A DNA stretch of 64,000 nt from Eledone cirrhosa (taxonomy: Eukaryota): positions 20,026,001 through 20,090,000 of the forward strand of contig OZ024744.1 of NCBI GenBank assembly GCA_964016885.1, in the 5' to 3' direction. The notes beneath the pieces are model-generated. The model was not told the DNA's origin, searched no databases, and saw only the letters and a list, made by a program, of their open reading frames with translations. Positions 4,431 to 60,705 of this stretch are shown piece by piece. The stretch's first letter is position 1; each line of letters starts with the position of its first letter. The position numbers and the translations under genes were made by a program.

Positions 4431-4647
4431 TTTCTTTATTAGCCACAAGGGCGCACAATAAAAGGGGACAAAACAAAGACATACAATCGTGCAAAAAATA
4501 TAAAACAAACAATTATAACAATCGAAATCCCCAATAGGGGGGAAGCTCCACAAATGGGTTGTTTATTACCCCGTCAATAGAACAACCGTCAACTTCAGGA
4601 GTGTGTTGTGCAAGTGCTCCTTTCTTCCTTTTGCTCAATTATTCAAC

Positions 4648-7600: not shown

Positions 7601-7723
7601 CCTGGACTCGGTGATGGCTATCACATCCATACTGTGTGACCTAAGGTCATTTAAAAGTTGGCCCTGTTTCCAGGGCATCCCTAGGACACGCACATTCATG
7701 CTTCCAACTCATAAATTAGCCAT
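4648..7723 (-). pseudogene. Tx1 A ORF2 (APE endonuclease-RT), disrupted
   Basis: Fragments MNVRVLG..VIAITESR, YSDHK, GYWKLN, KSPGLDGLPYEFY, SYADD, CSRCAQ; multiple stops and frameshifts. Confidence 0.88.
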
Positions 7724-7765
7724 GTTGGTGGAGAAGAGTTGGCGAAAAAGGACGAAAAGATGCAC

Positions 7766-9837: not shown

Positions 9838-10284
9838 TATCGATAGCAAAAATGTTAAATTTTTTGCAAATTTTTCAGATAAAATGTCCGCCCGTGTGGG
9901 GCAAAAACTGAGATTGCCACTCAGCTGACAATTCAGCCTGGGTGTTAATCTATCAAACAATATAAATTTTCACACAATAAATTCTGTTTTTGTATAGAAA
10001 ATTTTACAAAATCTTACCGACGATCTATTGCACGTCTGGTCGATACATAGATAAATTCTTTTATTAGCCACAAGGGCACAAAAGAAGGGGACAAATACAA
10101 ATGGGGAGTTTACATGCAGGTATATGAAAATAAAACTATTAATACAATAACAAATAACAATTGAAATCCCCAATAGGGGGGAGGCGTTACACAGGGTTGT
10201 AACACCCCGAACAAATGTACAACCCTTATCTCTAGGAGCACCAAGAGTGAGTACTCCCTTCCTCTATTCCGCTTTTTCCTCAAC

Positions 10285-13200
10285 CTACAGGCTTATATAG
10301 AGAGAAGGCCCAACCACTCGGGCCATCTTTGCCACATTCACCCACCTTTTATAAAATTTGCTGGGTACAGCACCTCTCTCTCCATCCTGATTCTTCTTCC
10401 AAAATGATATTTGAAAAAACGAATCAGTTGCTCGCCGGAGAGGAAGGTGTCTGACCTCAGCCCTTTTAACCTCGTCCACCATATAACCTCTTTCACCATA
10501 GCCATAACACATATCAAAACCGCCCCTCCCTCGTTTTTGAAGGAGGGTGGCGGTTTGATCATGACAATGGACTCGGTGGTCAACTGGATTCGTCCCACCC
10601 GCGACAATAGTCGTTCTACATAGCCCACAGGTCGGTAACGCCCAAATGCGTGTGCCACGGTCTCCTCGTCGCGCACGCATCTCGGACAGATCTTTTTCGA
10701 AGGGTCCCCTGTAGAGCTTGTCTTGAACTGGTAGAGCTCCTCGTTAGCACTGCCAGGCCAGGGACTTTTGGAAGTTGTCCATTGGTCCCGGGCGGAAGGT
10801 CCTACCGAACAGACTGGCCAGTTCGTCCAAAGTATCTACGAACGTGTCGTCGCACTTGCTGCGGACCAACGCTCTATAGAATGTCGAAGTGGAGTCTCCA
10901 CTGATCGGCAGGTCCGTTTGTCAGAGGACTGAGCGCCTGAGCACATTCGATGTGCCAGTCGCTCATTTTCCTCGGTCTTTGCTTGACCCAAGACTACAGC
11001 TCGGTCAGCGAGACGAGTCGTGGGAAGGCTCGCCTCACGAAGGGGCCCACACCGGTTGTCTAGTGAGGAATACGTGGAGGTGCCGCAGCCTGAGCGCGTG
11101 TTTGCGCATCGTCAGCCACAGCATCCCCAGCCCTCCGTTTGAAGGGTGTTGGCACCAGATGGATCTTCTCACCAAAGGAACCCCTTTCTTCCAAAGGAAT
11201 TGGAAGAGCGCGCGCTCCATTTTGGTGAGCGTTTTGGCTGGACAAGGCACAACGGCCAAGCGGTAGTAGATGACGGTCGCTATAAAAGTGTTCGCCACCT
11301 TCGCTCGACCTTTCAAGGATAGTTTGCACTCGGCCCACTTCTGGGTGAGGGCAAACACCTTGGCCGTCACCTCGTTCCAGTTCTTCTCCAACTGGGGGTC
11401 TGGACCAAACCAGACCCCGAGCAGCTTTACCGGTCCTTCCGTCCACCGTCCGACGACGTCATCGGAAGGCATCGGTTTGCCTCTCCACGTTCCGAGTTGC
11501 AAACCGACGGATTTGTCCCGGTTCCGCTTCGCTCCTGTGAACCTTTCGTATTCCTCCAGTAAGGTGCCTATCTCCCCGAGGTGCTCGACACCATTACTGT
11601 CACCTCGTCGGCGTAGGCCGACGCCGCTTTTCGCAGTCCCGTTTCCAGAGGGATGCCCTGCAATAGCTCCAACTTCCGCAGTATTGGCTCGAGAGTCAAC
11701 ACGTAGAGAAGGGAGGAGAGAGGGCATCCCTGTCGGATGGATCGCGTGATATGGAACGGCTCCGAGAGGTAGCCGTTCACCTTGACGCTTGAGCAGATGT
11801 TGCTGTTGTGCATTGCAGCAATCCAGCCCCTGAACACGGGACCGAAGCCTGCCGCCTCGAGCACCGGATCCAGGTAACGATGGTCAACCCTATCGAAAGC
11901 CTTAGACTGATCCAAGTTGATCAGGGCCCCACCGAAGCCGGATTTCCACCCTACCCTCTCTATGATGTATTATCGCATATGGTGGAGGTTGTCGTGTATG
12001 GACCTGGTCGGGATTGCGCATGTCTGCGCTTCTCACACCAGGATTTCGACGACAAGCGCCAGCCTCTTTGCCAACACCTTGGCCAAAATCTGTAACTCTG
12101 TGTTGAACAGAGTTATGGGCCGGAAGTTGCCTATGTCATCCCCTTTGTTATCGTCCTTCTTGACTAACGCGATTACGCCCTTGGTCACAGAACTGGGAAT
12201 TCTCCCGTTCTGCTTCTAGTTGCAGTAGACCGCTTCCAGGAGACCGGAGAACAAGTCCGGCATTGCTACGTAAAATTCGTAGGATAGACCGTCGAGACCT
12301 GGAGATTTGCGTTTGCCGCATTGGCTCAGCACGTACCCTATCTCAGCGGCCGAAATCAGCCTTTCGCAGAACTTCGCCTCGCTGTCCGAGAGTTGCGGTA
12401 GGCCGTCGAGGTATGATACGAAATCCATAGCCCTCCTGGCTCGCCGCCCTGCCCGAACAGTTGAGCAAAGTGCCGCTGAAAGGCCGCGCACATTTACTTC
12501 GGCTTACGTATCACGTGTCCGTCTTGGTCCTTCAAAGACCAAATCTTGGACTTGTTGCCACTTTTCGCCTCCATCACTCGGGCCCAGTTAACAGCTTTCG
12601 CTCCCTCGTTTCCTAGAGCACGTATTTTGCTTATGACAACGCAGCCTTCATGCTTTGCGTCGAAGAACTGGTCCAAGGCCGTTCTCGTCGCTAGCACGCT
12701 GGCTACGTTGCCACTCCTAAGTGCCTCTTCTACATTATCTACGAGTTCCTTTTCGGTCTTATTTCTATTTAACACTAATTCTTTACTAAAACCTATCGAA
12801 TCGAATCTAACTGCCCTCTGTTGTTGACAATGGCCCCCGTCAAGTGCTGCTTAACTAAAGTGCTAATCCGTTTACTGTAGGCTTTGCATGTCGGTAACGA
12901 CAAGTTCAGCTTCCAGTAGCCAGGTTCCTGTCTATGGTTTTGTCAAGGTTGACTAAGCAGGTCACTAATTTGTGATCTGAATAGGCAACCATGAACATTT
13001 GTGGACAGCTTAACATGTCCCTATCCTTCTTTCTAACTAGAACCCTGTCTAGGTACGATCTAGATGTTCCGCTACGATTACTCCACGTCCACAGTGGCAC
13101 AGTCAGAAAATCTAGTCCATATCTATCGGCCAGAGTCAAATCAGCCGATTAACTGTTTGAGGCTGTTACAGCCCCTTCTATCGGGACATGCTCCCACATA

Positions 13201-13667: not shown

Positions 13668-13707
13668 GTTGGTGTTGAAAAGTTAAAAGAAGAGGAAAAG
13701 AAATCAC

Positions 13708-15181
13708 TCACCTCTTCGTTTCCTGCGGACCAGGCTGCACAATTTCCATGGGGGTGTTGGGGGGGTTGTTTGGTGGTGTGGTGGTCTCTGGCGGGGTGGG
13801 GACGGAGATATTTAGTGGGTAGGAGGTGTCATGTGGGGTTGAGGTGGGGAAACATTTCAAAAGGACGCGGTTATAGGGTTTGACGCAGGGGTTGCCTACG
13901 TCGTTAGGAAATTCTTCTTTTAACTGTTTATGTGTGTCCATGGAGATTCAAATCATTTTAAGGTTAGGATTCTCCGCAGAGTGTGTAAAAGTTTTCCTTC
14001 GGTCTCCACCGAAGGGTTTTTATATATGGTGTCTGTTAAAGTGTTATTGTTAGTATTTATGTAGGTGTAACATTTTTGTTGTGTTGTGTTGTTTTTTTTT
14101 CTGTGGTTCTTGTGTGTTTTTACGTTTTGTAGTAGGTGTTTTGTTTTCAGGAGAGGGTGTTTGTGTTTGTGCTGTTTGCGTCACTTGTATTGGTGTTTGT
14201 GTGTTTGTTGCATTTTTATTTGTGTTATGTCTTTTCTTTTTTCTTTTTACTGGTCGGAAAGGCTCTCCCTCATCGTAACTGGGTGACGATGATTAGGCCT
14301 CATCCGTGTTGTTGGGTAGGGGTACATTTTGAGAAGCTGTTATGTGTGTGGGTGTTTCTGGAGTTGTTTTAGGTGGGGAGGGGTTGGGTGGGACCGTGTT
14401 TGCAGTTTGGTTTGTTTTGTGTGTTGTTGTTGTTGTGGTGGTGGTTGTGTTGTTCTGTTGGGTGTCGGCAGTAGTGCCTTTTTTTACTGCAGTTAATTGA
14501 GGACAGGAAGCCCTCAGGTGACCACTGCTTAAACAGTGGTACATGAAGGCCGCCTACCCTCAACAGATATGTTTATGTAGGAATTTCCATCCAGAGGCAT
14601 ACGTTGTGGTATTCTACCTATCCGTTCTGGTCTCATTTGGACCAGAACTTCTAAGCTTGTACCGTTGAGTATGCCCCTGGAGCACTTTCCTACCGAAATT
14701 ACTGTATCTTCATCAACATTCTCCGGCATTAGAGATGTCAATCTGTATTTTGAACAGTTTGTGCAAACGAGACCTTTTTATCCTCGTTTGTGGAGTTGTT
14801 CTTGTTGGTGTTGTTGTCATTAATGTTGCTGCTGTTGGTGTTGTTGTCATCATTGTTGCTGTTGTTGTTGTTGTCATTGTTGTCGTTATTGTTGTTGTTG
14901 TTGTTTTTGTAGTTCTCAATTGCTTGATCTGTGTTTGCTGAAATCATTTGTGATGTGTTTTCGTTCATAGCATTGTTGTTATTGTTGTTGCTGGTGCCGC
15001 TGGTTGTGTTATTTTGGTTTGTTGCCATGGCAACATCAAGTTGTCGGTCAGCGGGTGGAGAAAATCCTTCTTCTGGCTGACCTTTGTCTTTGATATCTGC
15101 TACTATGATAGTGGCAGGGGGAAGCTGTAATCACATCCTCCCTTTTCCTCCTTCGAATGTTGGTGAAGAAGCTTCAGCCAT
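13708..15181 (-). pseudogene. Tx1 B ORF1, disrupted
   Basis: Asn-rich N-terminus, SFAQTV motif, knuckle YHCLSSGHLRASC, C-terminal FPNDVGNP. Confidence 0.78.
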
Positions 15182-15432
15182 TTTTTTTTAAATGTTAGCT
15201 TTTCCCCAAAAAACTTTTTATGTACTATTTCGCCTAAAGACGTAGAATATTTTGAGAGACTGACCAGATCAAAATTTGACCTGGCAGTCCCTCTACAAGT
15301 TGATATAACAAGGAAGGTTCACAGTTATGAATTTCTATAGAAATTTAGGCAAGTTACCCAGCAAGTTTCACGCATGTGTCCAAATAGATAGATAAATAGA
15401 TAAATACATATATAGATAGATAGATAGATACA

Positions 15433-37890: not shown

Positions 37891-38133
37891 CATTATAATT
37901 ATAATTATTATTATTATTATTATTGTTCTGTTCGGACGTCTTTTTGACTCGCTCCCAGTAAGTCGCTTTATTTGCCTGTTAAAATTATTTGTTGTTAAAT
38001 ATTTCTTGTTGTGTAAGGGATATAAGCCCTTAGAGTTTGCCCTGTGAAGGGGAAAGTATAATATTTGGGCCTTTTGGCCCAAATATTTGAACTTTTTTTT
38101 ACATGTTAACAAATTTACGGAGAAAAAAATAAC

Positions 38134-39995
38134 ATGGCTGAGCCACGCCCCCCAGCGATATTTCTGCTGTCGTGCCACAACGACGTAGAAGTTGAGAGGA
38201 GCGCTACAGCGAAATTAACACACATTGATAACACAAACACCACCACAAACAAGGTAAACAAAGACACCGATGATACCAATGAGAACTCTAATTTTGAAAA
38301 AAATGACAGTAACAGCGACAACGAAAATACAGATAACAAAAAAAAAAAAATAACAAAGGCAACAACAATATCAACACCACTAACATGAAAACAAATAGTG
38401 ACAACACCAACAGAAACAATACCAACTGCACCGAGAACAACGGTGGCAACAAAGACAACAATGATAACAGCGACAGTGATAACCAGAACACCAACAAGAA
38501 CAACGACAACGACAACAACACCCCCAACAAAAACAAGAAGAACACTTTCGCTGCGACAGCAGCAAAAAAGAGGCCATGATTCAACATGGACCTCTCAAAC
38601 AAACATGAAAAGTTGGCCCAGGCATGGAAGCTCATAAAGCAAGAGCAAACCTGGGCCAACTTAACTGTCCCGGTAGAAGCTATTGAGGCAGTGGAGCGCA
38701 GAACGGTGCATTATAGATGCATCTCAGCACAAACAAAAAGGGCAGCTTTAATCCCACAAGAAGATGTCGAAGTCGCGCTGAGGTGCATCAGAGAAGACAC
38801 CGAATACATAGAGAGGGGCAGACAGTACGGCACCATTTCGGTGTTGTTCAAGTCAGATGCCCTCGCTATGAAACACGCTATGACTCCTTGCAAAACCAGC
38901 AAGATCATGATGTACCCCTCCCACATGGGAAAAAGAACGGCCCGTCTCCGCATTCCCAGAATCCCACAAGGACTTGACCTGTGGTGGCTTCTGGGATGTG
39001 TGATTGTGGAGGGGACGGATACCGTCCCTATAGAAGTGACCAGAACGGCCAGAGAGGACTGGTCCGGGGTTGACCTGGAGATCCTTCTCCAGATCAGGCC
39101 CGAGAATGTGAAGACAATCCCGGACCACATCCGCCTTCAGAATGGGACGGTCATTCACATTATGACCGAAGGCGAAAGGCCACAGTGTTTTGTTTGTGGG
39201 GAAAAAACCCATTTGCGAGCCTTCTGCCCTCAACTGCTGAAAAAGGCAAGGGGTCGAAACGCTCCACTGCTGCCGACGCCGGGGCGAGGACCACAACCAA
39301 CACCAGCACCGGCAAAACCACCAACAACAACACCAATAGAAAGACCACCCCCAACATTGAGCACCCAGGAGGGAAACGAGGAAAGCTGTCAAATTCCCCC
39401 TCCCCCCAAAAGTACACACACCAATAAAACCATATACATACATACAGACACACTTACAGACACAGACCCCTCATCTACCAGTAGTGAAGATGAGGGAAAA
39501 CCAAAATCCCCCAAAATACAAAAAAGGAAACACAAAAAGAAAAAAAACCCTCAACAAAGCACAAAATCACCCACATTAAAAAACGCAGACACCACCCACG
39601 CAAACATCTCTCAAATAACACCAACATCAACACCACCATCACCATCACCACCACAGCCATGCAAACAAATAAAATCACACCAACAAAACATACAAAACTT
39701 CGTGGTGCTCGTCAGGAGGGCCAAGAAGGAACTGATGGCCCTCGTAGCACGAAATGAAAATATACAAAAAGAGGGGGAAAGTTTTAAATCGAGCACATTT
39801 CGCGTGCCGGAAGATTTGGTTCTGGTGCGAATGTCGCTCGACATATTCAAAGAAATACGAGACAGCTTTCCTCGGGACGTGGGAACCCCGAACGTAAAAC
39901 CCACTTCAAGACTTTTAAAGGGGTTCCCAAAAGAAACCCCACTAACTATGGAAGTCGAACAACCCGACCTTCACAAGACCCCGGAAGGTAAGTAA
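38134..39995 (+). pseudogene. Tx1 G ORF1 (gag-like, single CCHC knuckle), frameshifted N-terminus
   Basis: 469-aa open part 38586-39995 with CFVCGEKTHLRAFC; Asn-rich N-terminus in other frames. Confidence 0.85.
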
Positions 39996-40026
39996 ACCTT
40001 CCTCTCTCTCTGTTTAACCTGCCAAC

Positions 40027-43000
40027 ATGGCCGTATTAAGAGTAGGATGTTTAAATGTTCGAAGCCTGGGATCGTCCTGGAAGCAGGGTCACCTGCTCAA
40101 CGACCTGAGGTCTATAGAAATGGATGTAATTGCAGCCAGCGAGACCAGGATTTCCGACACGCGCGCACTAGCTCCCATTTTCGACGACTATCAGATCTTT
40201 GCATCTGTTAGCCAGCTGGGAATGGGAGGCGGGGTGGCAGTGCTGTTTAGGAAAGGCCTGGATCTCGAGGTAAGGTCGATATTCCGGGACCCGGACGGGA
40301 AGTTGGTGGTCCTGGACGTGAACAATAATGAAGGTGGTGTCTTTAGACTGGTGGTAGTCTATGCCCCTACTGAGGCAGGACGGCCGGACTTCTATAGACG
40401 CCTGGAAGCCTTTCTGGGTACGTCTCGCCCTTTACTGTTAGCAGGGGACTGGAACGGCATCTTAGACGCACGCTGGGACTGTGTGGGAGTATCCGATAGG
40501 AGCGGGGGGTGTAAAAGCCTCAAGAACCTGATCAGCCAGTTCCAACTGTCTGACAGGTACCGACTAGATTTCCATAATGCGCCTGTGTGGATCTGGCCTA
40601 ACCGCATAGGGTCATCTAGATCGTATATCGACAGGATATTCATTAGGAAAATAAACAGAAATAGTGTAAGCTGTCCACGTTTTGAAACGGTCGCCTATTC
40701 AGATCACAAGTTTGTGATCTGTATGGTCGGCCTAGATAAGACGCGTAGGTTAGGACCTGGTTACTGGTAGCTAAACATGTCATTTCCGGCACGTAAGGCT
40801 TACAGGGACCAGGTCAACAATTTAGTTAAGAAAAAGTTGACAGGGGGCGTCGTCAACAATAGATGGTGGGGGGGGGGGGCTCTCAAATGAGAGATTACAG
40901 TAATGTCGATAGAGTTTAGCAAAGAAGTAGCATTAGAGAAAAATAGCAAGGAGGGAGAGTTGGTAGATAAGTTAGACGAGGCTATTGGTAGTGGCATTGC
41001 AACTGATGTGCTAGCGGCGAGAATGGCATTATACCATTTCTTCAATGCGAAACACGAAGGTTGCATGGTCAGAGCTAAGGCGCGTGCTCGGAGAAACGAG
41101 GGAACCAAAGCTGTTCGATGGGCCCGCGTGGCAGAGGCGCATCGTGGTAATAAAAGGACGATTCGGTCTTTGACGGACCGAGACGGGCTCGAACTGAGCG
41201 ATTCCAAGAGGATGTGTGACGGCTTTCGCCAACATTTTGCTCGGCTGTTCGGGGGAAGTTGAGTCAGAGATGGTGGCGGACTTCAGTCCCTACCTCGATG
41301 GCTTGCGCAACTCTCGACGGCTGACGCTGGGCGCTGCGAAAGGCCAATTACTTCAGCCGAGATTCAGGATGCCCTTGTAGGCTTCATGAGGCGCAAGTCA
41401 CCCGGTTTGGATGGTCTGCCCTACGAGCTTTACGTAAATATGCCAGACTTGTTCTCCAATCTCCTCGAAGCCCTCTACTGCAACTGGCAGCAAAACGGGA
41501 GTATTCCCAGTTATGTGAGACGTGGCGTAGTGACGCTGATAAGCAAAGACGAGAACAAGAGGGAGACATTAGACAATTTCACGTCCATAACTCTGCTCAA
41601 CACAGAGTTTAAGATTTTGGCCAGGGTGTTAGCGAAGAGGTTGGCGCTTGTCGTCGGGGATTTGGTTGGGGAGGCGCAACTTTGCGCAATCCCAACCAGG
41701 TTCATACACGACAACCTCCACCTAATGCGATACATCATAGAGAGGGTAGGGTTTAAACCTGGCTTCGGTGGGGTTCTGATCAATTCAGATCAATCGAAAG
41801 CATTCGATAGAATCGACCATCGGTACCTGGAGGCTGTACTCAAGGCGGCTGGCTTCGGCCCCGTCTTCAGAAGCTGGATCGCTGCAATGCACAGTGGCAC
41901 CTGCTCGACTGTCAAAATTAATGGCCACCCCTCGGAACTGTTTCAGGTCTCCCGATCGGTCCGTCAAGGATGCCCTCTCTCCTCCCTTCTGTACGTATTG
42001 ACTCTCGAGCCTTTACTGCGGAAGCTGGAGCTGTTGCAGGGCATCCCGCTCGAACCGGGACGCGGAAAGTCTGTGTCGGCTTATGTGGACGACATCACCG
42101 TGATGGTGTCGGACACCTCAGAAATCGAGGTGGTCGGCAACTTATTGGAGGAATATGAAAGGTTGACGGGAGCAAAACTTAACCCGGAAAAGTCAGTGGG
42201 CTTGCAACTCTGCACTTGAGAGGCAAGTCCATGCCGTCCAACAGCGTCGTTAGGCGCTGGACGGACGGACCGATAAAGTTTCTAGGGGTTTGGTTCGGTG
42301 GATAAGAATTGGGACGAGGTGACGGGCAGGGTAGTCAGTCTCACCCAGAAATGGGCTGGGATGAAGCTATCACTGAAAGATCGGAGGTGGCGAACGCGTA
42401 CATCGCGTCCGTCTTCTACTACCGTCTGACTGTCGTCCCTTGCCTCCGTTCGCGCCTGGCCATCTTGGAGCGGCTCCTCTTCAAATTCTTGTGGAGGGGT
42501 CAGGTTCCGCTGGTGAGGCGGTCCATCTGCTGCCAGCATCCTCTACGTGGAGGGCTGGGCATGCCGTGGCTAATGATGCGCAGGCACGCGCTGAGGCTGC
42601 GGCATCTCCAGATATTCTGCCTAAACGGTGAAGAGGTGTGGTCGCCGTTTGTCAGACGGGCCTTTCTGCAGCTCGTTTCTTTGACTGAGTTGCAGTCCTG
42701 GGTCAAGAAGAGACCGAGACTGGGTGACTGGCATTTGGAATGTTGCCAGGCACTCACTGCCCTCTACCAGGCGGGCAATGCGGTCAGTGTAACTTCCACT
42801 CTCGAGTTCTATAGCGGATTAGTGGTGGGCAAGTGCGATGACGCACTCGAAGAAGCTCTGGGAGTCAACGAAGTCGAACTATCCAGTCTGTACCGGAGGA
42901 CTTTCGAGCCGGAGACGATGGATAATTTCCAAAAATCTCTCGCTTGGCAGTGCCACCGGGGGGCACTGCCGGGTGGAGATAAACTCTACAGGCACCGAAG

Positions 43001-43433
43001 TGCTGTCAGACGGACCTGTTCGAGATGCGCGCAGAGCGACGAAACCGTTCTGCATGCACTCGTCCAGTGTCCGTGCATTACTGACTTGTGGAATTATGTT
43101 GAACAGCTGTTGTCGCGTGTAGAACGGATCCGGCTATCGGCCGAGTCCATAGTGAAGATCGACCCGCCGCCTTCTTTTGGCCAGGAAGGGCAGGCAATTT
43201 TCCTCTGTCTGGTGGCAGTAGCGAAAGAGGTTGTATGGTGAACGAGGTTGAAAGGACTGAAGAGAAACACTTTTCTCTTCGGCCAATCCCTCATCAACTT
43301 TTTCAAGTTTCACTTGGAAAGGAAGGTGAGGGTGGAGAGAGAAGTGCTGCTCCCCAGTACATTTGCTGAAAGGTGGGTGAATGTGGCGAGAATGGCCCGT
43401 GTGAGTGGGCCTACTCTGGTCATGCGGCTGTAG
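40027..43433 (+). pseudogene. Tx1 G ORF2 (APE-RT-CCHC), disrupted
   Basis: CLNVRSL, SETR, GDWNG, SDHK; KAFDRIDH, RQGCPLS, YVDD; CSRCAQSDETVLHALVQC. Confidence 0.92.
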
Positions 43434-43847
43434 GTAGGTAAATTTGAAGAGGAGAGGGGTGCCCTTCCAGGGGCTCTCGAAGCGTCGGGTCGTTCAGGAC
43501 TGGTGGGATACCTGAGCGAACCCTGAATTTTTTCTTGTAATTTTCTTTTTACTTTATTGTTACTTTGTTATTGTTACTTTGTTTATTCATATTGTTTACT
43601 CGATTTTCCTGTAAAACCCCACTGTCCCAGTCTTTTGTATTGTCCCCTATATGTCGGCCCTTGTGGCCAATAAATGAAATCGTTATTTTCAGTTATTTAA
43701 AATTGCCATTCATAGAACATTTTTATTGTTAACTGTATATAAGTGCACATACATTGTTATCTGAAAAGGACACCCAAAAAGATTGGGGTCTTGAGCCCCA
43801 AATTTAAACATTTATAATTATCAAAACAATTTTTTCTTTGAAAAATT

Positions 43848-45818
43848 ATGGCTGACTCAGAGTCACTCCTTTCTCACAAACTAACACCTCACACCGACAC
43901 CACCATTGTAAATGTTACTACGTTTGCCAACACTAAAAAAAATATAAGCAGTAGTAATATTTTAAATTTGTCTCAGGCAGACATTAATTTCCCGCCATTA
44001 CCGATGACTGCAGGTGTTAAAGCCGCCCCCTCCCACCGCGACAACCTCCTTCCCCAACCACGACCCCCATCACCACCACCACCACCACCACCGCGACAAC
44101 AGAAACAAAAGGAAAAAAATAAATTAACTCGTGATATCGAAATGAATTCAACCATAATGAACTCTTCCACACCGAACACCACTGACGCCACCACCACCAC
44201 AACTGAAACTAAAATTAATAATAACAAAAATAACGATAACAACAACAGCAACACGTGACATTAAGAAAACCACCCTGAGTTTTGCCAGACTAGCAAAAAC
44301 GTGCGAAGTATTTCAGGTAACTCAGGAGGAATTAGAAGAGGCCAAAAAATGGTAAAGAAAGATGGGTACAGGGTCAGCCCTCCCCCACACACACCTAATA
44401 AAATGGAGCATCGGCGCCTATGCACCGTGTCTTATCGAACAATTAATATGAAATCCCGCCGAGTGGAACGGGAATCCGAGTCCCAAATCCAAAAAGCTTT
44501 GGGACATGTGTGGGCCAAAAAAACCCACATCAGACGTGGGCAGAAATATGGAACCGTGGACGTGTTCTTTGAAACACAACAGGAGGCTAGAAAACACTCC
44601 ATGGCCCCATTAAGTAGTGACGACTTCACACTCGTCCCAAGCTATTTTGGCCAGAGACTCGTAAAGATCAGGGTCACCCACGTTCCACCGGCCATCGAAA
44701 TTCCTTGGCTAATAGCTGCCGTCCTCGCTGGCATCGAAGCCAACACCAAGATAATCGAAATAGCGAAAGAAAAGCAGGTGAACTGGTCCGGATCTGGGAT
44801 GGAGCTCCTGATCCAAGCGGACCAAAAAAGCATTGAGGAGATCCCAGAGGTAACAGAGCTCACTGACGGCAGCCACCTCACCGTAATCGTCGAGGGCAGA
44901 AGGCCTAGGTTTTTCGGTTGTGATGAAGGAACCCACCTAAGGGCTTTCTGCCCTCAGGCTAAAATGTTGAGGCCACCCCTCTTACCCACCCCAGTGACTC
45001 AACCATCAACACCACCAGCAGCACAAATGGCAGCAACAACTGTAGCTGCAACAGCAGAAGCAACTGTAACAGCAACAACCCCAGCAACAGTAGGAAAACC
45101 AACACCACCACCACCCAACGCGCCAGATCTTGCACCAGCGCCATCCACCACGCCCCAACCAAAACCAACGCCCGTGGAGGATTTTCCACTCCTCGACCTA
45201 TCGCAACTGGAGACAGATTGTGACGACGAGGAGTGGGAAACGGTATCAGGAAAAAAAAAAAAAAGATAAAGAAGCCAAAAAAGAAAAAAATCCTCCCCCC
45301 CTCCAAAAACAAAATACAGAGGGAAACAAATAAACTATCAAACAAAAAAGTTAGGACAGGCATGCCACCATCCACACCAGCATCACCAACCCCATCACCC
45401 CAAACACCAACAGCATCACCATCATTAACCCCAACACCACCATCACCTACACCACAAAAGTCACCAAAATGCGAAACAAACAAACCCACAACAAACGCAA
45501 ACAAAACAAAACTACCAAAACGATACACACTACACAGCATTAAATTTGAACAACCAATTATTACACTACATCCAACACAACACCAGCATCACAGAAAAAG
45601 ACCACACAACAACCCAAAAGTTCACACCACCTCCACACATACAAATCACTTGCATCACACAAAAAAGGTACATGACACTAAAACAAAAATTCCCCAAAGA
45701 CATCGGAGACTTCCGACAAGCACTCTCCAGGAGGATTTATAACGACATCCTTCCTGAGGAGGCCACAAGCAGTGAAAAGGATGGAGAAACCGTACTTCCT
45801 CTACGAGAAGTAAGGTGA
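43848..45818 (+). pseudogene. Tx1 H ORF1, disrupted
   Basis: RRGQKYGTVDVFF, VEGRRPRFFGCDEGTHLRAFC, C-terminal FPKDIGD. Confidence 0.82.
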
Positions 45819-45852
45819 GTGGTCTTTCCCATCTTTTCCACTCCATTTCAAC

Positions 45853-48800
45853 ATGACCTCACTCAGAATAGGCAGCATAAATGCGCGTGGCTTGGGGTCA
45901 TCATTTAAGCAGGACCACCTGCTCAACGACCTCAGGTCACTAAACATAGATGTAGTGGCCATCAGCGAGACCAGAATCTCCGAAGCGTGGGCTTTCGCAC
46001 CGATCTTCGGCGGCTACGATGTGTACGCATCCCCAGCCGTCCGGGATCGGGGGGGGGGGAGGGAGTTGCTGTGCTTTTTAGGAGATGTTTGGATCTTGCC
46101 ATACGAGCCATCTTCCTGGACCCAGAAGGTAAGTTGGTGGTGCTGGAAGTGACCAGCGGAGACGGGAAAGCTTTCAGGTTAGTGGACGTCTATGCCCCGA
46201 CAGGAGCAGGGCGGCCTGATTTCTTCCGGCGTCTGGAGACCTTTCTTGAAACGTCCAGCTCTTTAGTGTTAGTGGGCAACTGGAACGGGATCTTAGATAC
46301 ACACTGGGACTGTGTGGGATTAGTGGATAGGGGCGGAAGGTGCAAAAGTCTCACCAACCTGATCAGGCGTTTTGAACTGTCTGACAGGTACCGATTGTAT
46401 TTCCCGAATGTGCCAATGTGGACTTGGACAAATCGTATTGGGTCATCCAGATCATATCTAGATAGAGTATTTTGGAGGGAAATAGATAGATCTAGCATAG
46501 GCTGTCCACAATTCAAGATAGTCAGCTACACGGACCACAAATTCGTGATCTGTGTGCTTGACTTAGATAAGCTTCATAGACAAGGACCCGGCTACTGGAA
46601 GGTAAACGCGTCCTTACCAGCGCGCAAGGCCTACAGAGACCGGATTAGCGAACTAGTTAAGCGAGCGTTGACGGGAGCTATCGACCTCAACAAGTGGTGG
46701 TTTGCTCTGAAAAGAGCAATTAGAATAGAGTCCATTAGGTTTAGTAAGGCTTTAGCAATAGAGAAAAATAGAGCAGAGGGAGAATTAGTTAGAAAATTAG
46801 ACAAGGCGCTTAGCAAAGTCATCGCGACCGACGTGCTTGCGGCGAAATTGGCCCTTGACCAATTTTTCAATGCAAAGCACGAAGGCTGCATTGTCAGAGC
46901 TAGGGTGCACGCTCTCAGACACGAGGGGACGAAAGCCGTTCAATGGGCCCGAGTGGCGGAGGCGCGTCGTGGCAACAAAGCCACGATCCGGTCTTTGGAG
47001 GACCACGACGGGCGCATCCTACTCGATCCCAGGCAAATGTGAGAAGCTTTTCAGCGACACTTCGCACAGCTTTTTTCGAGGGCAGCGGCGGGCCGGATAC
47101 AGGGATGGATTTTGTGTCTACCTCGACGGACTGCGCGGCTCTCGGCGACTGAGGCGGAGTGTTGCGAAAAGCCGATAACAGCCGCTGAAGTACGGGAGGC
47201 AATGACTGGCTACACAAGGGGTAAATCGCCTGGCTTGGATGGTCTGCCCTATGAACTCTACGTTCAAATGCCAGACTTGTTCGGAGGCCTCTTGGCGGAC
47301 GTCTACTGCAACTGGCAACAGAACGGGAGAATTCCCAGCTCTGTGAGCCGAGGAGCGGTGGCGCTGCTGAGAAAGGATCCGAACAAGGAGGATAATATAG
47401 ATCATTTTAGGCCCATAACTCTGCTAAACACAGAGTTCAAGATTTTGGCCAAGGTGTTAGCAAAGAGGTTGGCGCTTGTCGTTGGTGGTCTGGTGGGAGA
47501 GGCGCAGACATGCGCCATTCCCGACAGATCCATCCACGACAACCTCCACCTCATGCGATACATCGTAGAGAGGGTAGCTAGGGAACCTGGCACGGGTGGG
47601 TCTTTGATCAATTTAGATCAGTCGAAAGCTTTCGATAGGGTCGACTTTCGTTACCTAGCGGCAGTCCTGAGGGCGGCTGGCTTTGGGCCCGTCTTCAGAG
47701 GCTGGATCGCTGCCATGCACAGCGACATCTGCTCTGTGGTGAGAGTGAACGGTCACCTTTCGGAACCGTTCAACATCATGCGCTCGGTCCGCAAAGCATG
47801 TCCTCTCTCGTCCCTCTTGTACGTATTGACTCTCGAGCTATTACTGCACAAACTGGAGACGTTGAGTGGCGTTCCGCGCGAACTAGGATGCGGAAGATCC
47901 CTGTCACCATATGCGAACGATGTCACCGTAGTGGTGTCGAACGCCAAACACATCAAGGCGATCGGCACTACACTAAGAGAATACGAAGCGGTGACAGGAG
48001 CAATGATCAACCAGGAATAGTCAGTGGGCCTGCAGCTTGGCACCTGGAGAGGCAGGTCCATACCGTCCAATAGCGTCGTCGGGCGCTGGACGGATGGACC
48101 GGTTAAATTGCTAGGGATCTGGTTCGGTCCGGACCTCCAGACGGACAAAAACTGGGACGAGGTGACGAGCAGGGTGGCTTCTCTCACCCAGAAATGGGCG
48201 GAGAGGAAGCTATCCCTGAACGGTCGAGCGGAGGTGGCTAACACGTACATCGCGTCCGTCATCTACTACCTCCTGACCGTCGTACCTTGTCCTAAGCCCC
48301 GCCTGACTGCGCTGGAGCGTTTGCTCTTTCGCTTTTTGTGGAAGGGACGCGCTACGATGGTCAGGCGGTCCATCTGCTGTCAACACCCGCTACGTGGAGG
48401 GCTGGGCATGCCATGGCTGATGATGAGCAGACACGCGCTCAAGCTACGACATCTCCACCTCTTTCTCGACGTCTATCAGGTGTGGTCGCCGTTTGCTAGA
48501 CACATCTTTCCCCAGCTCGTCTCCTTGACGGAGCTGCAGTCCAGGGTCAAGCAAAGACCGAGAGGGAACGCTTAGAGACTGGAATGTCTTCAGGCACTCA
48601 CAGCCCTCGACCAATCAGGCAATGTGATCGGTGGAAACTCCACCTTGGCGTTATATAGGGGAATAGTGGAGGGGAAGAGCATCGACGTACTTGGAGAAAC
48701 ACTATGCGTCGACGAAAATCAACTAGCCAATCTCTTCGGAAGGACTTTCGGGCCGGGGCCTATGGACAACTTCCAGAAATCCCTGGCCTGGCAGTGCTAC

Positions 48801-49282
48801 CGATGAGCTTTGACAGTTCGGGATAAAATCTACAGGCGTGGAGGTGCCGTCACCCGGGCATGTCCGAGATGCGCGCAGGGCGACGAAACCGTCCTGCACG
48901 CACTCGTCCAGTGTCTGAGCATTGCTGACTTGTGGGTTTATGTCGAACACCTGCTGTCACGTGTAGGACGGATCGAGCTATCAGCTGAGTCCATCGTGAG
49001 GATTGCCCCGCCCTCTTCCTTTAACCGGGAAGGGCAGGCAATTTTTATCTGTCTGGTGGCCATGGCGAAAGAGATAGTATGGTGGACACGTTTGAAAGGG
49101 CTGAAGACGAGCACTTACCTCTTCAATGATGCCCTGATTAACTTTTTCAAATTTCATTTGAAAAGTAATATCAGGATAGAGAGGGAAGTGCTCTCTTCCC
49201 AGCATTTTGCTGAAAGATGGGTGAGGGAAGCAAGTATGGGCCGTGTGAATGGGCCGGGCCTACTCTGAGTATGCGTCTGTAA
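45853..49282 (+). pseudogene. Tx1 H ORF2, disrupted
   Basis: SINARGL, GNWNG, TDHK, KAFDRVD, YAND, CPRCAQGDETVLHALVQC. Confidence 0.92.
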
Positions 49283-49574
49283 ATTAAAGGTGGAAAACTG
49301 GGAGAGGGCACTTGCCCTGGTGGTCAGTGTCACTGTGGCCTTTTAATGGGCTTTCCCCATAAATGGCTCTCGGAAGTCTCCCCTCTATTGGGGAAATTTT
49401 CATTCTTATTTTTTATTACATCCTCCGTTTTTTTTTACACGCAGAAATGCCCATTTGTACCGTCCTGTATTGTCCTGTACAGTCCTTAATTTCTACTTCA
49501 CATAAACCCTTGTGGTTAATAAAGAAAACATTATTATTATTATTAGAATTATTATTATTACTATTATTATTATT

Positions 49575-52500
49575 CTGTTGATGTTGGAGGAAGACGAAGG
49601 AAATTGACAATAACCAACTGGACGAAAGAATTAAATAGAACTGTCAGGAAATGTTTACCCGAAGAGTAACCTCAAGGAAAAAGAATTGGAACGAGATTGG
49701 TCTATTTAAATTAGATGAACGAAAATTGGCCGGGCTGGCTCTGGTAATAATAACTAATTGATGTATAAGCGAGCTGTAACTTGAGGAACTGAGCAGAGAG
49801 ATTAAGTTGGAAATGGAGGGTGGAGTATGTCAGGCAAGCGAGCCAGTGGGAAATGAAGGTGAAGTGGTTGAGAGACCTGAGGAAGCACCCGAAGCAGACA
49901 ATGATCTGAATGCTGAAATAAATAACATCTGGAACAAAGATAGGGCCATTGAGGAAATTAATGCTGACGGGCTAGGACAAGATTTGGTTGATATCTTGAA
50001 CTTAGTGGTAGATGAAATGAACAATGATAGTGAGAAACCTATGAACCTAAGATTTGTAGACAGGAAAAAGTTAAAAGAAACAACAGCTAAGGTAAACAAA
50101 GTCATCCCATACCTTGAGTGGAGGAACCTTCACCAATGCAACAATATCCTCAAAGCAACCGCAAATGCGGTGAGGAAATTACTTGGCATAAAAACGAGAG
50201 GAAACAACAAACAAGACAGATCAGAACCTTGGTGGAAGAAACGACTGAATGGTCAAATCAGGGAAATGAGAAAAGACATTGGAAAGCTTGAGCCCCTACT
50301 GAATGGGACACTACAAAACATAGACAGTAAAGATAGATTGGAAATAAAATACAAAACTAGGGGGAAAAAGCTAAATATTATCATAGAGGAACTGAAGCAA
50401 CGCATTGTAGCAAAGAGTGCAAAGGTTAGGCGGTATGAGAGCAGAGTCAGTCAGTATAGGCAGAACCGCATGTTTGACAACAACCAGAAGATGTTGTTTG
50501 GACAGCTTGAAGGGAAAGAAAGAAGCAACGACTTGGTCCCTGAGGCGGAACAGACTAAGACAATCTGGAGAGGAATATGGGAGCAGGATGTTGAATATAA
50601 TAGTCAGGCAGTGTAGATTGAGACAGTTCAAAAGGAGATTAGTAAACAGGCACATCAACAACCTGATTTGAGTATCACAGTAGAAACTCTTAAAGGACAG
50701 GAAAAAAACTAACCAACTGGAAATCACCAGGCCCAGATGGTGTGCAAGGGTATTGGATTAAAAACATAACATCCCTCCACCCGAAACTGACAACCATGTT
50801 CAATGACTGCTTGATGTCGGGTGAAGTACCACAGTGGTTGACTAAAGGTACCACAGTTCTGGTAATGAAAGACCGAATCAAGGGTAATGATGTTACCAAC
50901 TATAGACCTATCACATGTCTGTCCGTAATGTGGAAACTGTTGCCAGGCATTGTGTCTGAGGAAATCTACCATCACCTCCACACAAACAACTTGCTACCGG
51001 ACGAACAGAAAGGATACCGAAAGAAGTCCCGTGGTACAAAAGACCAGCTACTTATTGATAAGATGGTAATGAGGAATTGCAAGAGGTGGAGAATCCTTGG
51101 GAGGCGTGAAGATCAAGAGAGTTATCTTCCAAGGAGATAGTTTGTCCCCTCTGCTGTTTGTCCTGGCCCTGGTACCCTTGACCGTTATATTGCGAAAAGT
51201 GAGAGTAGGAAACAAGTTGGAAAAAGGAGAGCTTACCATCAACCACCTCCTCTTCATGGACGATCTTAAACTCTTTGGGAAGAGTGAGGAGTTGGATGTA
51301 CTTGTCGACACTGTCCGTATTTTCAGCAATGATATATGTATGGAAGTTGGTTTTAATAAGTGTGGAATCCTAGTGATGAAGAGCCGTAAAGTGAGCAGAA
51401 GCAACGGAATCCAGGTACCAACAGGTGAGATGATAAAGGAAATTGACACTGAGGAGTAATACAAATATTTAGGTGTTCTGGAGGCAGATGACATGAAGAA
51501 CAAAAAATGAAGGAATTGATAAGATCTGAGTACATAAGGAGAGTAAGGAGCGTATTAAAATCACATCTAAATAGTAGGAATGCCATAAGTGCAGTCAATT
51601 CCCGAGTTGTGTCTATTATTAGGTACAGTGCGGGATTTCTGAAATGGAATGTTGCTGAAGAAAAAGAAATGGATAGGAAGACTAGGAAGCTATTGACTAA
51701 CTACAACATGATCCACAAGAGGAGTGATGTCGATAGACTCTACCTAAGGAGATCTGAGGGGTGAAGAGGTCTTATCAGCATAGAGGACTGTGCTCAGATG
51801 GAGAAAAACAACCTACACAAATAGGTGACTGATAGTAGAGAGGCAATGATAAAATTGTACTGAAGGAGAAGACAATAGAGCAGGGGATGTCCAAGGAGGA
51901 AATAACAACGAGGAATAAGAGCAACCTTCTTGAAAAATCCCTTCATAGTACCTTCTTTAAGAAAACTAAATTTAGAGATCCACAGACATGGAACGGGTTA
52001 AAAAGCGGAGACCTTAAAAAAGCTACAGACGGAATGCTAATGGCTGCCCCAGAGCAGGCCCTCAAAACGAATGTGGGTGAAACACCATATTTACAAGGAG
52101 GAGGCTAGCTCACTGTGTAGGATCTGTGGAGAGAGAGAGGAGACTGTGGCTCACATTGTATCCGAGTGTAAACACCTAGCCCAGACTAACTATAAAGGTT
52201 GGAGACATGATTTAATGGGCAGGGTGATCCACTGGCACCTATGCAATGTAAACAATTTACCACATTCTGAGAAGTGGTATGAGTATAAGCCAGAGGCGGT
52301 GATAGAAAACGATCAGGTGAAGGTGCTATGGGATTTTAGGATACAGACGGACAAGAAACTGGAACACAATAGAACTGACCTGGTGGTTTGGGACAAGGAA
52401 AAAAGGTCGTGCCTGATTGTAGATGTAGCCTGCACATTTGACACGGGAGTGCAAGAAAAGGAGAGGGAGAAAATTAACCGATACCAGGACTTAACGCGGG

Positions 52501-52765
52501 AGGTAAAAAGGATTTGGAACTGCCATGAAATCAGGGACGTCCCGATTGTCATAGGCGCACTAGGTACTATCTCAAAAGGTTTCCAAGGATGGTTAAATAA
52601 GATTAGACCAACCCCGCTTTTTGGAACACTTCAAAAGGCATGCTTGCTGGGAACAGCAAGAACCCTCCGATACGTTCTGAATATCTGACGCTGCAGGTAG
52701 CGGCTTTATATTCCTTTCAACAAACTTTCCAGTTAAATAACATCAATGACTGAGACCCAAAGAAA
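49575..52765 (+). mobile_element. R4/Dong-clade RLE non-LTR retrotransposon (defective, internal RT deletion)
   Basis: PWWKKRL, KSPGPDG, NYRPITCL, QGDSLSP, LFMDD, CRICGEREETVAHIVSEC, RHD, WDFRIQTD..HNRTDLVV restriction-like endonuclease; (AAT)n tail. Confidence 0.88.
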
Positions 52766-54934: not shown

Positions 54935-56546
54935 ATGATCTTCTCAGCTAGACAGCTCCAGGAGAAGTGCACGGAAAAAGGCTTGGATCTGTATCAGGTT
55001 TTTGTCGATCTGACAAAAGCTTTCGATACTGTTAACAGAGATGCATTATGGAAGGTTCTCCAGAAACTTGGTTGCCCTGATAAGTTCCTTGCTTTAGTTA
55101 GGTCTTTCCATGACGACATGAAGGCTTGGGTTAATGTCGGGGGTAACATGTCGGAGCATATCTCAGTAAAAAATGGAGTGAAACGGGGAAATTCCAGCAC
55201 CGACCCTGTTTGCCATATACTTTGCAATGGTTTTCTGTATTGCATTCAGGAATTGCGGGCATGGTGTTTACATCCGATATCGAACCTCAGGCAGCATATT
55301 TAACACCAGGCGCTTTGCTGCGAAGACAAAAATATTTACATCAATCACAAGAGACCTCTTGTATGCAGATGATTGCGATCTTTTAGCGCACACAGAGAGT
55401 GATATGCAGCACATTTTGAATGCATTTTCTGACGCTTGCACTGTCCTAGGATTGACTGTCAGTCTCAAGAAAACCGTCGTCATGTACCAACCTGCCCCTG
55501 GTAAGCAGTACACTGAACCAAACATCTATGTGTATGGCAAACGACTTGGAGTGGTTGATAAGTTTGTCTACCTGGGAAGCAACCTTGACGGCAACCTTGA
55601 CGGTGAAATCTCACTTAGGATTAGGAAAGCAAGTGATGCTTTCGGAAAGCTAGAAAGGCGACTCTGCGGTCGGCGAGACATATGCAGGAGGACAAAGGTA
55701 AAGGTGTACAGGGCATGTGTGCTCTCTTGTCTTCTTTATGCCTGCGACACCTGGGTCACATATCGACACCACCTTAAGCAATTGGAGCGCTTCTATCAGA
55801 TGTGTCTCAGATGGATCCATGGCGTTCACTGGAGGGACCACATCAGTGATGTCCAGATTTTGGAAAGCTCTATGTGTGACAGTATAGAAGCTCTTGTGCT
55901 TAAGCAACGACTCCGTTGGAGTGGTCACCTTGCCAGGATGAAGGATTCTAGAATACCAAAACAACTCTTTTATGGAGAGTTGGTTAAAGGAAAACGACCG
56001 CCACATAAACCAAAAAAGAGGTATAAGGATTCCTTAAAAGCCTCTCTGAAAGACGCTAACATCTCTGCTGATACATGGGAAAATGTTGCTGCTGATCGTA
56101 ATAACTGGAGAAAGACTGTATATGAGGGAAAAGTTGCCTTTGAGGCATCTCGAATCGCATACAAGAAAGTAAAGCGGGATGTGAGGAACGGCATTGCTGT
56201 TGCACTACCAGACGGCGAGGGTCCTCCTATGGTGCTGACATGCAGCGTATGTGCGAGACTCTGCCTAAGCAAAGCTGGACTCGAAAGTCATCTTCGCAGT
56301 CATAAAGTAAGACCAGTGGTTGACTACCAGGCTGCTGTTGGAGATGCTACTCATCATGCTTGCCAAACATGTGGTAGAGAATGTAAATCAGCAGGAGGGC
56401 TCAAGCGACATGCAAAAGTACACGAACTCCGAACCACAGCCGACTATTCCCAGTGAATGTTTTGGTTGCCGACTCTGTGCAAGACATTTTAGATCATTGG
56501 CTGGGCTAAAAAGGCACATTCGATCGCAGCGCTGTTAGTTGCTATC

Positions 56547-57911: not shown

Positions 57912-60705
57912 ATGACCCTCCCCAAGTATAACAATATTTGTTTCGACACACGATTTCATATAACAAACCTCGCAAAACTAATTCATCGCCGCTATGGCAT
58001 TAGCTTCTGCCAAGCTGAAAGGTTATTGAAAGATACTGTTTTCTTTTATATAAAAACTACAATAACAACAGAACAAATCCGCTTCTTAAAACACTGTGTT
58101 TCCTCCAAAACATACACAACAAACATATCAAAACAAGTAAATAATTTATTATTGAACAAAACACAAGCTGAACGACTAAAACACACAATAACAGTTAATA
58201 TGAAAAGAACAACATACACAAAAGTCAACGAACTTTACAGACAGAAACGCATTAACGGTAAGTAAATCCGAAATCTCACCACACCAAACGAGAGGGATAA
58301 CTTCATGAGCGTCATCCGACGTGAAACGAAATACGCCCGAAACGAATGCTATAGGCATTTCAAGGAGAAATTAGAATGGATGAATAAGAAAAAACTACAA
58401 GAAAGGAAAATAGAATATTCTCAAAAATACCCAGATAACATCAACAATATTCGTATGACTGATGTAAAACTACCGGAAGAATTTACCAATGACCACACAG
58501 TAAATATTTATGGGAACACTTTAATCAGTGAACAAGAACAACAAATCCTGCGGCTACCACCAAAATTTGCCATCTACAAAAAGATTAACCCTATGGAATG
58601 CAAAACGGAGCTGGAAAAGTGTTTCACAAAAATACGTTGGAATGCAAAGGTAAACAACAACAATAACGGTAGTAGTAATATAAACAATAACTCTGGGTAT
58701 AGAAATAACAGCCATAACCATAACAATGGCAGGAAAGTGAGAAATAGTGATAATGGTAATAATACTAGCGATAGACAGAACAACAACAACCACAATAATA
58801 ATAATAATAGAAACATTAACCACAGACACAGCAGCAGCGACCACAGTAGTAATAACGATAACAATACGAACAACAACAACAATAACCACAGTGGTAATAA
58901 TGGAAATAGTACATGTAGCAACATCAATGACAGACACAACAAAAACAAGAAACATAATAAAAGTAACAACCACAATGGTAGAAATAACAGTAACAACAAC
59001 AATAACGGTGAAGTAAACAACAATACATCTAGCAATCATAACAATAATAATAATGCTAATGATAGAAACAACAACAACAACAACCATAATAACAATAATA
59101 GCAACACACACAACTATGACGATAGATATAATGACAACCCCTTAGAGAAACTATTTTTCAACACAGCTAACAAAACATATAAGATGGGTAATATCTATCC
59201 TACGAGGTTATCCTTTAATAAAAGAGTTTGCATACCACAACAAATAGATGACGAGACAGAGGCACAGTTCACCATAGCTAGAAATAAGATTAGACAAATA
59301 GTAGACCGGTATACTAAGAGACAGAGCAGACCAGAGGCCCAACAACCTGGGAGGAAACCTGTAGAAGGCTTGGTTAGCCTCAAGCAGCGCACAAGGGATG
59401 GTGAGGTAGTATGTCTACCCACGGATAAGTCTGGTAGGATGTCAATAGATAGCATGCCGAACTACATCAAGGCTATGCAACCCCACACCACCAACACGAG
59501 CGAAATTGCACAACAAACACACGATGGGAGAGAGAAAATCCTCAACGCTCACATGATGATGTGGACTGACATCCTAAAGCCAAGCAGAAGCACTTCTAAC
59601 AACTTCCAGGCGTCTAACAATGGCATACCACCCTTGTATGGGCTCCTCGAAGACCACAAGACAGTCGACGCCCCGACAACAGGACCACCAACAAGACCCG
59701 TATGCGGAGCTAATATAGCTAGTAACTACAGGATCTCCTACTTCCTCTCAATGGTTATACGACCTATAATCAAGATGTCCCCAGATGTATGTGACAGTAC
59801 AGAGGACCTCCTCAGCAGAATCAGTGAGTGCAACAAAAACAGGAACTTATCCAACTGCATAATAGGCAGCATGGATGTGGTGTCACTGTACCCATCCATT
59901 AACATTGATTTTGCTGTGAAAAGATGTGAGGAAATGATCATTGAGAGTGAGGTGGAGTTCTGCGACGTCGACACAGACGAACTGGGCCTCCTACTTAGAC
60001 TTACCTACGATACTGACTACCTAGACAGCCATGACCTTAGACGTTTCTGCCCTAGTAGACCTATAAGAGGTAGAACCCCCACCATAACCTCAATGGCAAA
60101 AAAGAGACTCCCATGGGAAGGTGGATTGGGTGGACCAAAGCTATACGGACCCCCAAAACAATGATCAGGTAAGAAAAATGGTCTCATATGCAATAGGGGC
60201 TAGTATCATAACTACCCTAAAGGGCCACATATTTAGGTTCAACGAGAAGATCTACACCCAAAATGAGGGAGCAGCTATCGGCGTCAGCATAGCTGGTGAT
60301 GTTGCCAACCTTTTCATGGTATGGTGGGAAAGGAGACTTAAAGATCTCCTTAATGAGAGCTCCATAGACCTCATCATGTACTCTCGTTATGTAGACGATA
60401 TCAATATAGTTATAAGAACACCCCCACTAGAGAGCACTAACAAATTTGATTTAGAGCGTAGCACGATGGAAAGCATCCAGCAGGTAGCTAATTCCATACA
60501 CCAGAGTATAACTGTAACTATTGACTTCCCTTCCAAACACCCTAACAATAGACTACCTGTATTAGACACAGATCTCTGGATTAACACTCTACACGAGGGA
60601 GCCCAAATTCTCCACTCACACTATACTAAACCCATGGCCTCCAAATACCTGATACTCAAATACTCAATGTCCAGTAGTGCTAAGTTTAATATTCTGCACG
60701 AGTGA
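57912..60705 (+). pseudogene. Penelope-like element reverse transcriptase ORF (in-frame stop, frameshift, 3' truncated)
   Basis: LRLPPKFA, PTDKSG, PLYGLLEDHK, TRPVC, SMDVVSLYPSI, GAAIG, YSRYVDD, LPVLD, YTKP; stop at 58263-58265 is in frame; no GIY-YIG domain seen. Confidence 0.88.

Follow-up and report, generated by a model that had tools for sequence, protein, structure and literature searches.

The stretch of DNA analysed here (the window, 64,000 nucleotides (nt) of Eledone cirrhosa contig OZ024744.1, positions 20,026,001 to 20,090,000) carries four decayed long interspersed nuclear elements (LINEs), G, H, A and B, each with two open reading frames (ORFs) and with endonuclease, reverse transcriptase (RT) and zf-RVT regions, in which a hexamer matching the consensus of a 5' splice site (donor) lies at the end of ORF1. 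Copy G, on the plus strand (37925–43683), is a full-length element that sits in (ATT)n and comprises a leader, a frameshifted ORF1, ORF2 and a 3' untranslated region (UTR). The last open piece of its ORF1 (38586–39995) ends with the donor-like AAG|GTAAGT in phase 1 (39988–39993), which overlaps the ORF1 stop codon (39993–39995) and is followed by a pyrimidine-rich spacer (39996–40026) and the ORF2 ATG at 40027; this site is the best sense-strand match of the element to U1. A second donor-like hexamer, CA|GTAAGT, is found in the leader, about 34 nt into the element (37958–37963), and the ORF2 stop codon TAG (43431–43433) falls within a YAG|G acceptor candidate (43429–43439) followed by GTAGGT. 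Copy H (43684–49527, plus strand), a Tx1-like LINE with a truncated leader, has AAG|GTGAGT in phase 2 at 45815–45820 (ORF1 stop 45816–45818, ORF2 ATG 45853), while the hexamer typical of its family is GTAAGT, and its ORF2 stop codon TAA (49280–49282) offers no AG. Copies A and B lie on the minus strand, both with the donor in phase 2. In A, AGG|GTAAGT (7764–7769) precedes the ORF2 ATG at 7723, the leader has TCG|GTAAGA (10012–10017), one base off the hexamer tested, and the ORF2 stop TAG (4650–4648) is part of a CTGTAG|G acceptor candidate (4647–4653). In B, the corresponding features are GAG|GTGAGT (13706–13711), the ATG at 13667, an imperfect leader site TGG|GTAACT (15352–15357), and a TAG (10287–10285) within CTGTAG|G (10284–10290).

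A previous reading of the window from its letters only (the sequence-only reading) had placed the four hexamers at these positions and noted the different donor phase of G, and both points hold. It had also described an AG-free, pyrimidine-rich spacer ending in CAAC-ATG, which is correct for these four copies (31, 34, 42 and 40 nt after the stop in G, H, A and B, respectively) and does not extend to the families as a whole: typical B copies carry a CAG 7 nt before the ATG, lost in the window copy, and families J, G2 and N also have an AG. The view that these are four copies of one element, with ORF1 tails that cannot be aligned, was mistaken, as they belong to four distinct families with 66–82% identity between their ORF2 proteins, and the tails of G, A and B do align (all end in ME[IV]..QP..; tblastn E-values of 3e-7 and 2e-4), H alone failing to do so.

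The ORF2 proteins contain an AP-type endonuclease, an RT and a C-terminal zinc-binding region (Pfam PF03372, PF00078 and PF13966), and their closest solved relative is human L1 ORF2p (E-value 4.5e-50, versus 6e-22 for R2). This ORF2 layout, together with a separate upstream ORF1 bearing a gag-like zinc knuckle, is that of the L1 group. Intact ORF1 proteins have 596–700 amino acids (aa) and gave no match in a Pfam scan, and none of 568 candidates screened in the database was a relative at an E-value of 0.001; their zinc knuckle, CxxCxxxGHxxxxC, aligns between family B and the outgroup element described below. An Rfam scan of six loci gave no matches. Each of the four families is abundant in the 3.0 Gb genome, with 150 of 150 scored matches per query at 86–100% identity, and families H, A and B have many intact ORF2s among these matches. 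Among named proteins the nearest belong to Argonauta hians and Octopus sinensis, and no named Tx1 reference was among the listed database relatives of ORF2. The 5' and 3' ends of the full-length copies inspected by eye adjoin (ATT)n, (ATCT)n or satellite DNA. It is from the domain layout and this target preference that a Tx1-like group is proposed; the label itself comes from the sequence-only reading and agrees with the usual features of Tx1.

GTRRGT was sought within 62 nt 5' of the ORF2 start, and was present at 185 of 199 starts in the loci examined, compared with 14 of 330 control windows inside ORF2; the 199 starts include some copies twice and were mostly chosen by family queries. A pattern for the ORF2 start that is blind to the donor matched the genome 9,996 times (three times for the reversed control), a lower bound, as the first letter of the pattern shuts out some families. 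Counted by eye, the first 100 of these starts, all from the first 34 Mb of one contig, comprise 93 with GTRRGT shortly upstream, one with GTAATT and six in which the motif is mutated or deleted. The motif is found in all 17 lineages compared (one copy each), 25–52 nt 5' of the ORF2 start, although its invariance there is partly by construction, because the search expression demanded a GT..GT core and admitted GTAATT after lineage J had been seen. Base −1, which the search left unconstrained, is G in 17/17 lineages and base −2 is A in 15/17, whereas position +8 agrees in only 6/17. The variants observed (GTAAGT, GTGAGT, GTAGGT and one GTAATT) are all compatible with a donor. When the roughly 300 sense-strand GT dinucleotides of an element are ranked by their match to U1, the ORF1-end site comes first, joint first or second in each of eight whole elements, scoring 7–8.5 of 9 against the 5' splice-site consensus; sites of equal score are present on the antisense strands of these elements.

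The sequence-only reading had also argued that the motif is no protein-coding constraint, and this is borne out. Lineages differ in their ORF1 stop codon (TAA, TGA or TAG) and in the phase of the donor: 12 have phase 2, five (G1, G2, N, B1 and I) have phase 1, and M has phase 0 (the phases of J and K come from one or two decayed copies). Phase 1 occurs at three or more separate places in the tree; N stands outside the tree and is grouped with G by its ORF1 tail. In family M, ORF1 reads 12 codons through the donor, and in the outgroup it stops one base before it. The distance from donor to stop ranges from −4 to +37 nt, and that from donor to ORF2 start from 13 to 52 nt. Thus, what is kept is the donor and not the stop codon, and the donor-consensus sequence is held irrespective of frame and stop.

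Family M (L304, L305, L308 and L309) is very young, with an intact ORF1 of 625 aa, an ORF2 of 1145 aa and 372 exact-pattern copies. Its ORF2 start has no AUG. In its place stands an ATA that shares bases with the TAG ending ORF1; no in-frame Met occurs before codon 35, and the reading frame of ORF2 extends without a stop for about 20 codons back into ORF1. Judging from these frames, its ORF2 would have to start at the ATA, via reinitiation or a −1 shift. AUG-independent translation occurs for the ORF2 of L1.

A related element in tandem arrays was found in a single record, CAXXMW01, by a scan of prokaryote genome records; these arrays are most likely eukaryote DNA assembled with a bacterial record, i.e. 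host contamination. They occupy many contigs (L226–L267), with unrelated 5' ends swapped onto one ORF2. This outgroup shares 40–41% identity with the E. cirrhosa elements in ORF2 and 24–29% over about 200 aa in ORF1. All 42 of its 42 loci have AAG|GTAAGT where ORF1 ends, and the 13-nt spacer between this site and the ATG has no pyrimidine run. GTAAGT is also present in the leader of three of the at least five 5' end types listed, a donor lies 15 nt past the ORF2 stop, and the 3' UTR contains an acceptor-like site. A tandem double donor of 14 nt, in differing frames, is found where ORF1 ends in both family H and the outgroup (window 45809–45822; L238:5982–5995). No further outgroups were obtained from metagenome contigs (0/214 and 0/103 candidate stretches), viral contigs (0/83 and 0/15) or 243 genomes of the order of G001, where G001 itself was the one match, and the E. 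cirrhosa genome searched with the outgroup endonuclease returned only the same clade.

The background against which the motif persists was measured at four-fold sites in 15 lineages (J and L were dropped from this set and from the tree for their truncated endonucleases): only 8 of 66 sites are invariant, mean pairwise identity is 0.61 and the tree length is 3.2 substitutions per site. Since neutral sites have turned over and the spacer varies freely in length, from 25 to 52 nt, while the motif stays, we read the motif as selected; very probably it is a U1 site, at which its sequence predicts binding of the U1 small nuclear ribonucleoprotein (snRNP). The sequence-only reading had named absence of the motif from subfamilies as the observation that would speak against such a site, and the motif is present across them.

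The ORF1-end site is accompanied by other splice-like signals. Of 19 leader types, 14 have a second donor-like hexamer within their first 95 nt, where shuffles lead one to expect 1.4; the 19 types are partly related and so represent fewer independent cases, and leaders without the exact hexamer include those of H1, H2, I and window copies A and B. At the other end, ORF2 finishes in YAG|G in 16 of 17 tabulated lineages (one of the 16 read through a single-copy change; H1 and H2, which end in TAA, left out) and in YAG|T in family I. If the donor is joined to this ORF2-end acceptor, a stop in the ORF1 frame follows within three codons in 12 of 17 lineages (permutation mean 8.5, P = 0.05, uncorrected for kinship and again without H1 and H2, which have no AG there). 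Two further candidates were rejected as conserved features: a 5' UTR acceptor, for which a hairpin AG is top-ranked in A, B1, F and M yet missing in C, L, E and window copy A, and a third donor at the ORF2 end, which is strong in G and the outgroup only.

Our best guess at the function, offered tentatively from these sequence features, is partial splicing at the ORF1-end donor that would remove ORF2 and yield an ORF1-only mRNA. U1 snRNP would read the donor, and in a share of the RNA ORF2 would be removed as an intron; the acceptor would be located at the ORF2 stop or past it, as the YAG|G for most lineages and as a site in the 3' UTR for H-type elements and the outgroup. The product would keep ORF1 whole and supply excess ORF1 protein, while unspliced RNA would stay the ORF2 message, by reinitiation across the spacer, as well as the template for copying. 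ORF2 skipping is ranked first because the site marks the end of ORF1 to within a few codons and the splice would leave ORF1 whole, most cleanly in the outgroup. A broader scheme, which we put forward with slightly more reserve, is a conserved retrovirus-like programme with donors in the leader and at the ORF1 end, the whole RT gene as intron, an ORF1-only mRNA and copying of the unspliced RNA only.

The predicted splice to an acceptor at or beyond the ORF2 stop is weaker than the case for U1 binding, and several observations weigh against ORF2 skipping. The acceptor at the ORF2 stop ranks only 3–47 of about 380 AG dinucleotides by our own rough score (22 of 395 in G, 42 of 394 in the outgroup), its pyrimidine run and TAG double as ORF2 codons, and H1 and H2 have no acceptor at the ORF2 stop. 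The splice would add at least 27 codons to ORF1 in 5 of 17 lineages. Conservation beyond this genome comes from a single outgroup. Moreover, bicistronic LINE RNA favours ORF1 anyway, and the need for an ORF1-only message is not obvious. Invoking other upstream AGs as acceptors was rejected, as it leaves too many free choices, which were uncounted.

Spliced copies in the genome are a further point on this side. Spliced LINE RNA can be copied back into the genome, and in human L1 spliced copies make up about 2% of full-length elements (PMC5860796). Seven whole-genome patterns for retrotransposed spliced copies gave seven matches (A donor 1, B spacer acceptor 0, H/H2 donor 4, C donor 0, A leader 0, G/N donor 2 and M leader 0) and no precise junction, the matches being small indels or an isolated short fragment; by design, each pattern lets the named candidate junctions through, and of arbitrary ones only about one-third to one-half, there is no copy-number denominator, and the leader patterns covered A and M, with the B1 leader left out. 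The lack of such junctions is only slight evidence against ORF2 skipping, the product of which has no ORF2 in cis and would need help in trans; against frequent splicing from the leader it counts for more. Three read runs behave like DNA contigs, with even cover and single-copy joints near a depth of 10, and no joint at the donor was seen among the 15 listed of 925 for copy G and the 15 listed of 50 for family N.

The absence of spliced retrocopies, even from leader donors whose products would be copied in cis, and of a conserved strong acceptor is what would be seen if U1 bound without splicing, which we regard as possible, if doubtful: the bound snRNP would shield the full-length RNA from early 3' end formation, or cause nuclear retention that limits expression, and the overlap with the stop codon would arise only because the spacer alone is free of coding constraint and the consensus holds a stop triplet. 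Effects of U1 that do not involve splicing are documented in PMC5580714 and PMC4380460, and in this genome the leader and ORF1-end sites come in pairs, each followed by U- or Y-rich sequence. As for what might be shielded, ORF1 regions contain 1–7 poly(A) hexamers, but the 3.5 kb past the ORF1-end donor only 0–2, and no AATAAA or ATTAAA within 1 kb 3' of the donor is common to the 10 elements examined (only G has one, at +663), so that there is little to protect; nuclear retention, for its part, opposes translation in cis. Of the three functions offered by the sequence-only reading, protection from premature polyadenylation is therefore weak at the ORF1-end site, whereas excision of ORF2 stays the best guess from the sequence. 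The third, fusion of ORF1 to downstream exons, fares worst: as an intron made of the spacer and joining ORF1 in frame to ORF2 it is hardly credible, and as a general rule it was rejected. An in-frame first AG after the ATG in phase-2 lineages, or the spacer CAG in B2 and B3, would allow it, but the phase changes between sister lineages with a common AG (between B1 and B2/B3, and between I and H), which contradicts a fixed downstream frame, B1, G2, N and M have their first AG out of frame, the introns would measure just 34–42 nt in B, C, D and E, and in the outgroup ORF1 stops before the donor, 13 nt from the ATG.

Alternatively, an intron could begin at the leader donor and have the spacer as its 3' end, its removal giving an ORF2-only mRNA; the ORF1-end site would then hold this splice at a low frequency, either by competing as a donor or by acting as a silencer. 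Leader donors are common, B, N, G2 and J have a pyrimidine run and a YAG just before the ORF2 ATG, and this YAG outscores every other acceptor of the element in N and shares the top score in B1; yet the sequence between donor and ATG lacks an AG in 12 of 17 lineages, the outgroup spacer is 13 nt without a pyrimidine run, and a genome search for copies joined at the family-B acceptor found none, which makes this explanation improbable. We give as little credence to a reader other than U1, whether the hexamer is a termination–reinitiation signal or the target of a DNA- or RNA-binding protein. The motif does lie where ribosomes stop and restart, the AUG-less, stop-overlapping ORF2 start of family M points to reinitiation, and termination–reinitiation is used by SART1 and L1 (PMC5972666); however, the permitted variants and the AG before the GT suit pairing with U1, the same hexamer stands in leaders, where no ribosome terminates, and the distances to the stop and to the ORF2 start vary over the ranges given above. 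Finally, the motif might be the chance context of an ancestral stop codon, inherited without function: the lineages in this genome share one ancestor and are not independent gains, the hexamer includes a stop triplet, and there is a single outgroup. The turnover of neutral sites and the variable spacer described above make such a relic very unlikely, as do the persistence of the motif where the stop is no longer inside it and its recurrence at 40% ORF2 identity and in unrelated leaders.

A number of other features of these elements and of the window were observed. Family N (L298, L299) is young and highly intact, with many ORF2 frames of 1150 codons, arrays of 5,840-bp period and a CAG one base before the ORF2 ATG. 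The target of family C is a satellite of about 59 bp and not a microsatellite, and it forms long tandem arrays (L172:300–737 and 6385–6700). Many unrelated leaders contain an RGACGT-like word 5–20 nt from the 5' end (window 37925–37965; L126, L185, L187, L189), which we take to resemble a downstream promoter element; transcription might start in the flanking microsatellite. Two hairpins are shared by the 3' UTRs, whose terminal AATAAA is conserved and which lack a poly(A) tail (4600–4430, minus strand; 43434–43683), and 5' and 3' modules have been exchanged between families, the leaders of window copies A and B being unlike those of intact copies of their own families. Other decayed LINE classes occupy 55227–56456, 58305–60705 and 49813–52688 of the window; by Pfam labels and eye, these regions hold an RT that has C2H2 fingers, an RT region resembling that of Penelope and one more RT fragment.

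Among known systems, the closest parallel is the Arabidopsis Ty1/copia element EVD (Oberlin et al. 2017, PMC5580714), in which a conserved 5' donor close to where the structural gene ends controls the balance of structural and catalytic products, a structural-protein-only RNA (shGAG) is made by splicing, and U1 on the unspliced RNA favours the full-length form. EVD has long terminal repeats (LTRs), a single gag-pol frame, a short intron and a poly(A) site close by, whereas the Tx1-like elements are bicistronic non-LTR LINEs with the donor on the ORF1 end and splicing predicted. Neither a consistent short intron nor a proximal poly(A) site (hexamers sought in 10 elements) was found here, and for this reason the Tx1-like elements would work like EVD by analogy but are not members of the EVD-type system. 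Human L1, with its spliced integrated retrotransposed elements (SpIREs; Larson et al. 2018, PMC5860796), likewise has donors inside an L1-group LINE, one of them in the 5' UTR. There, however, splicing is described as harmful, a dead end, and lineage-labile, occurs within the 5' UTR or from the 5' UTR to ORF1, and leaves spliced copies in the genome, while in the Tx1-like elements the ORF1-end donor is conserved across lineages and no spliced copy was found. The Tx1 elements Kibi and Koshi (Kojima 2015, PMC4494074) share with ours two ORFs, an AP endonuclease and RT, simple-repeat sites and tandem arrays; the targets here are (ATT)n, (ATCT)n and the 59-bp satellite, and the available text mentions no splice signal for Kibi and Koshi. 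In SART1 and mammalian L1, ORF2 is translated after ORF1 via an overlap or short spacer, as the start and stop overlap in family M suggests; the extracts of PMC5972666 involve no splice-donor motif, and M has ATA where its sister families have ATG.

LINEs are usually treated as unspliced bicistronic RNAs, in which splicing is an element-killing accident. The literature covered, including what was accessible of PMC4494074, PMC1636488, PMC5972666 and PMC4380460, contains no conserved ORF1-end donor in Tx1, within a set of mostly open full texts that makes an earlier mention possible. The ORF1-end donor is a real, very probably selected and apparently undescribed cis-signal. Its retention across neutral turnover and 60% ORF2 divergence would mean that this group of LINEs recruits U1 on purpose, and the motif would offer a six-base, mutable handle on how a LINE sets its ORF1:ORF2 ratio. 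With some 10,000 or more such sites in the genome, these elements could also feed strong donors into host transcripts.

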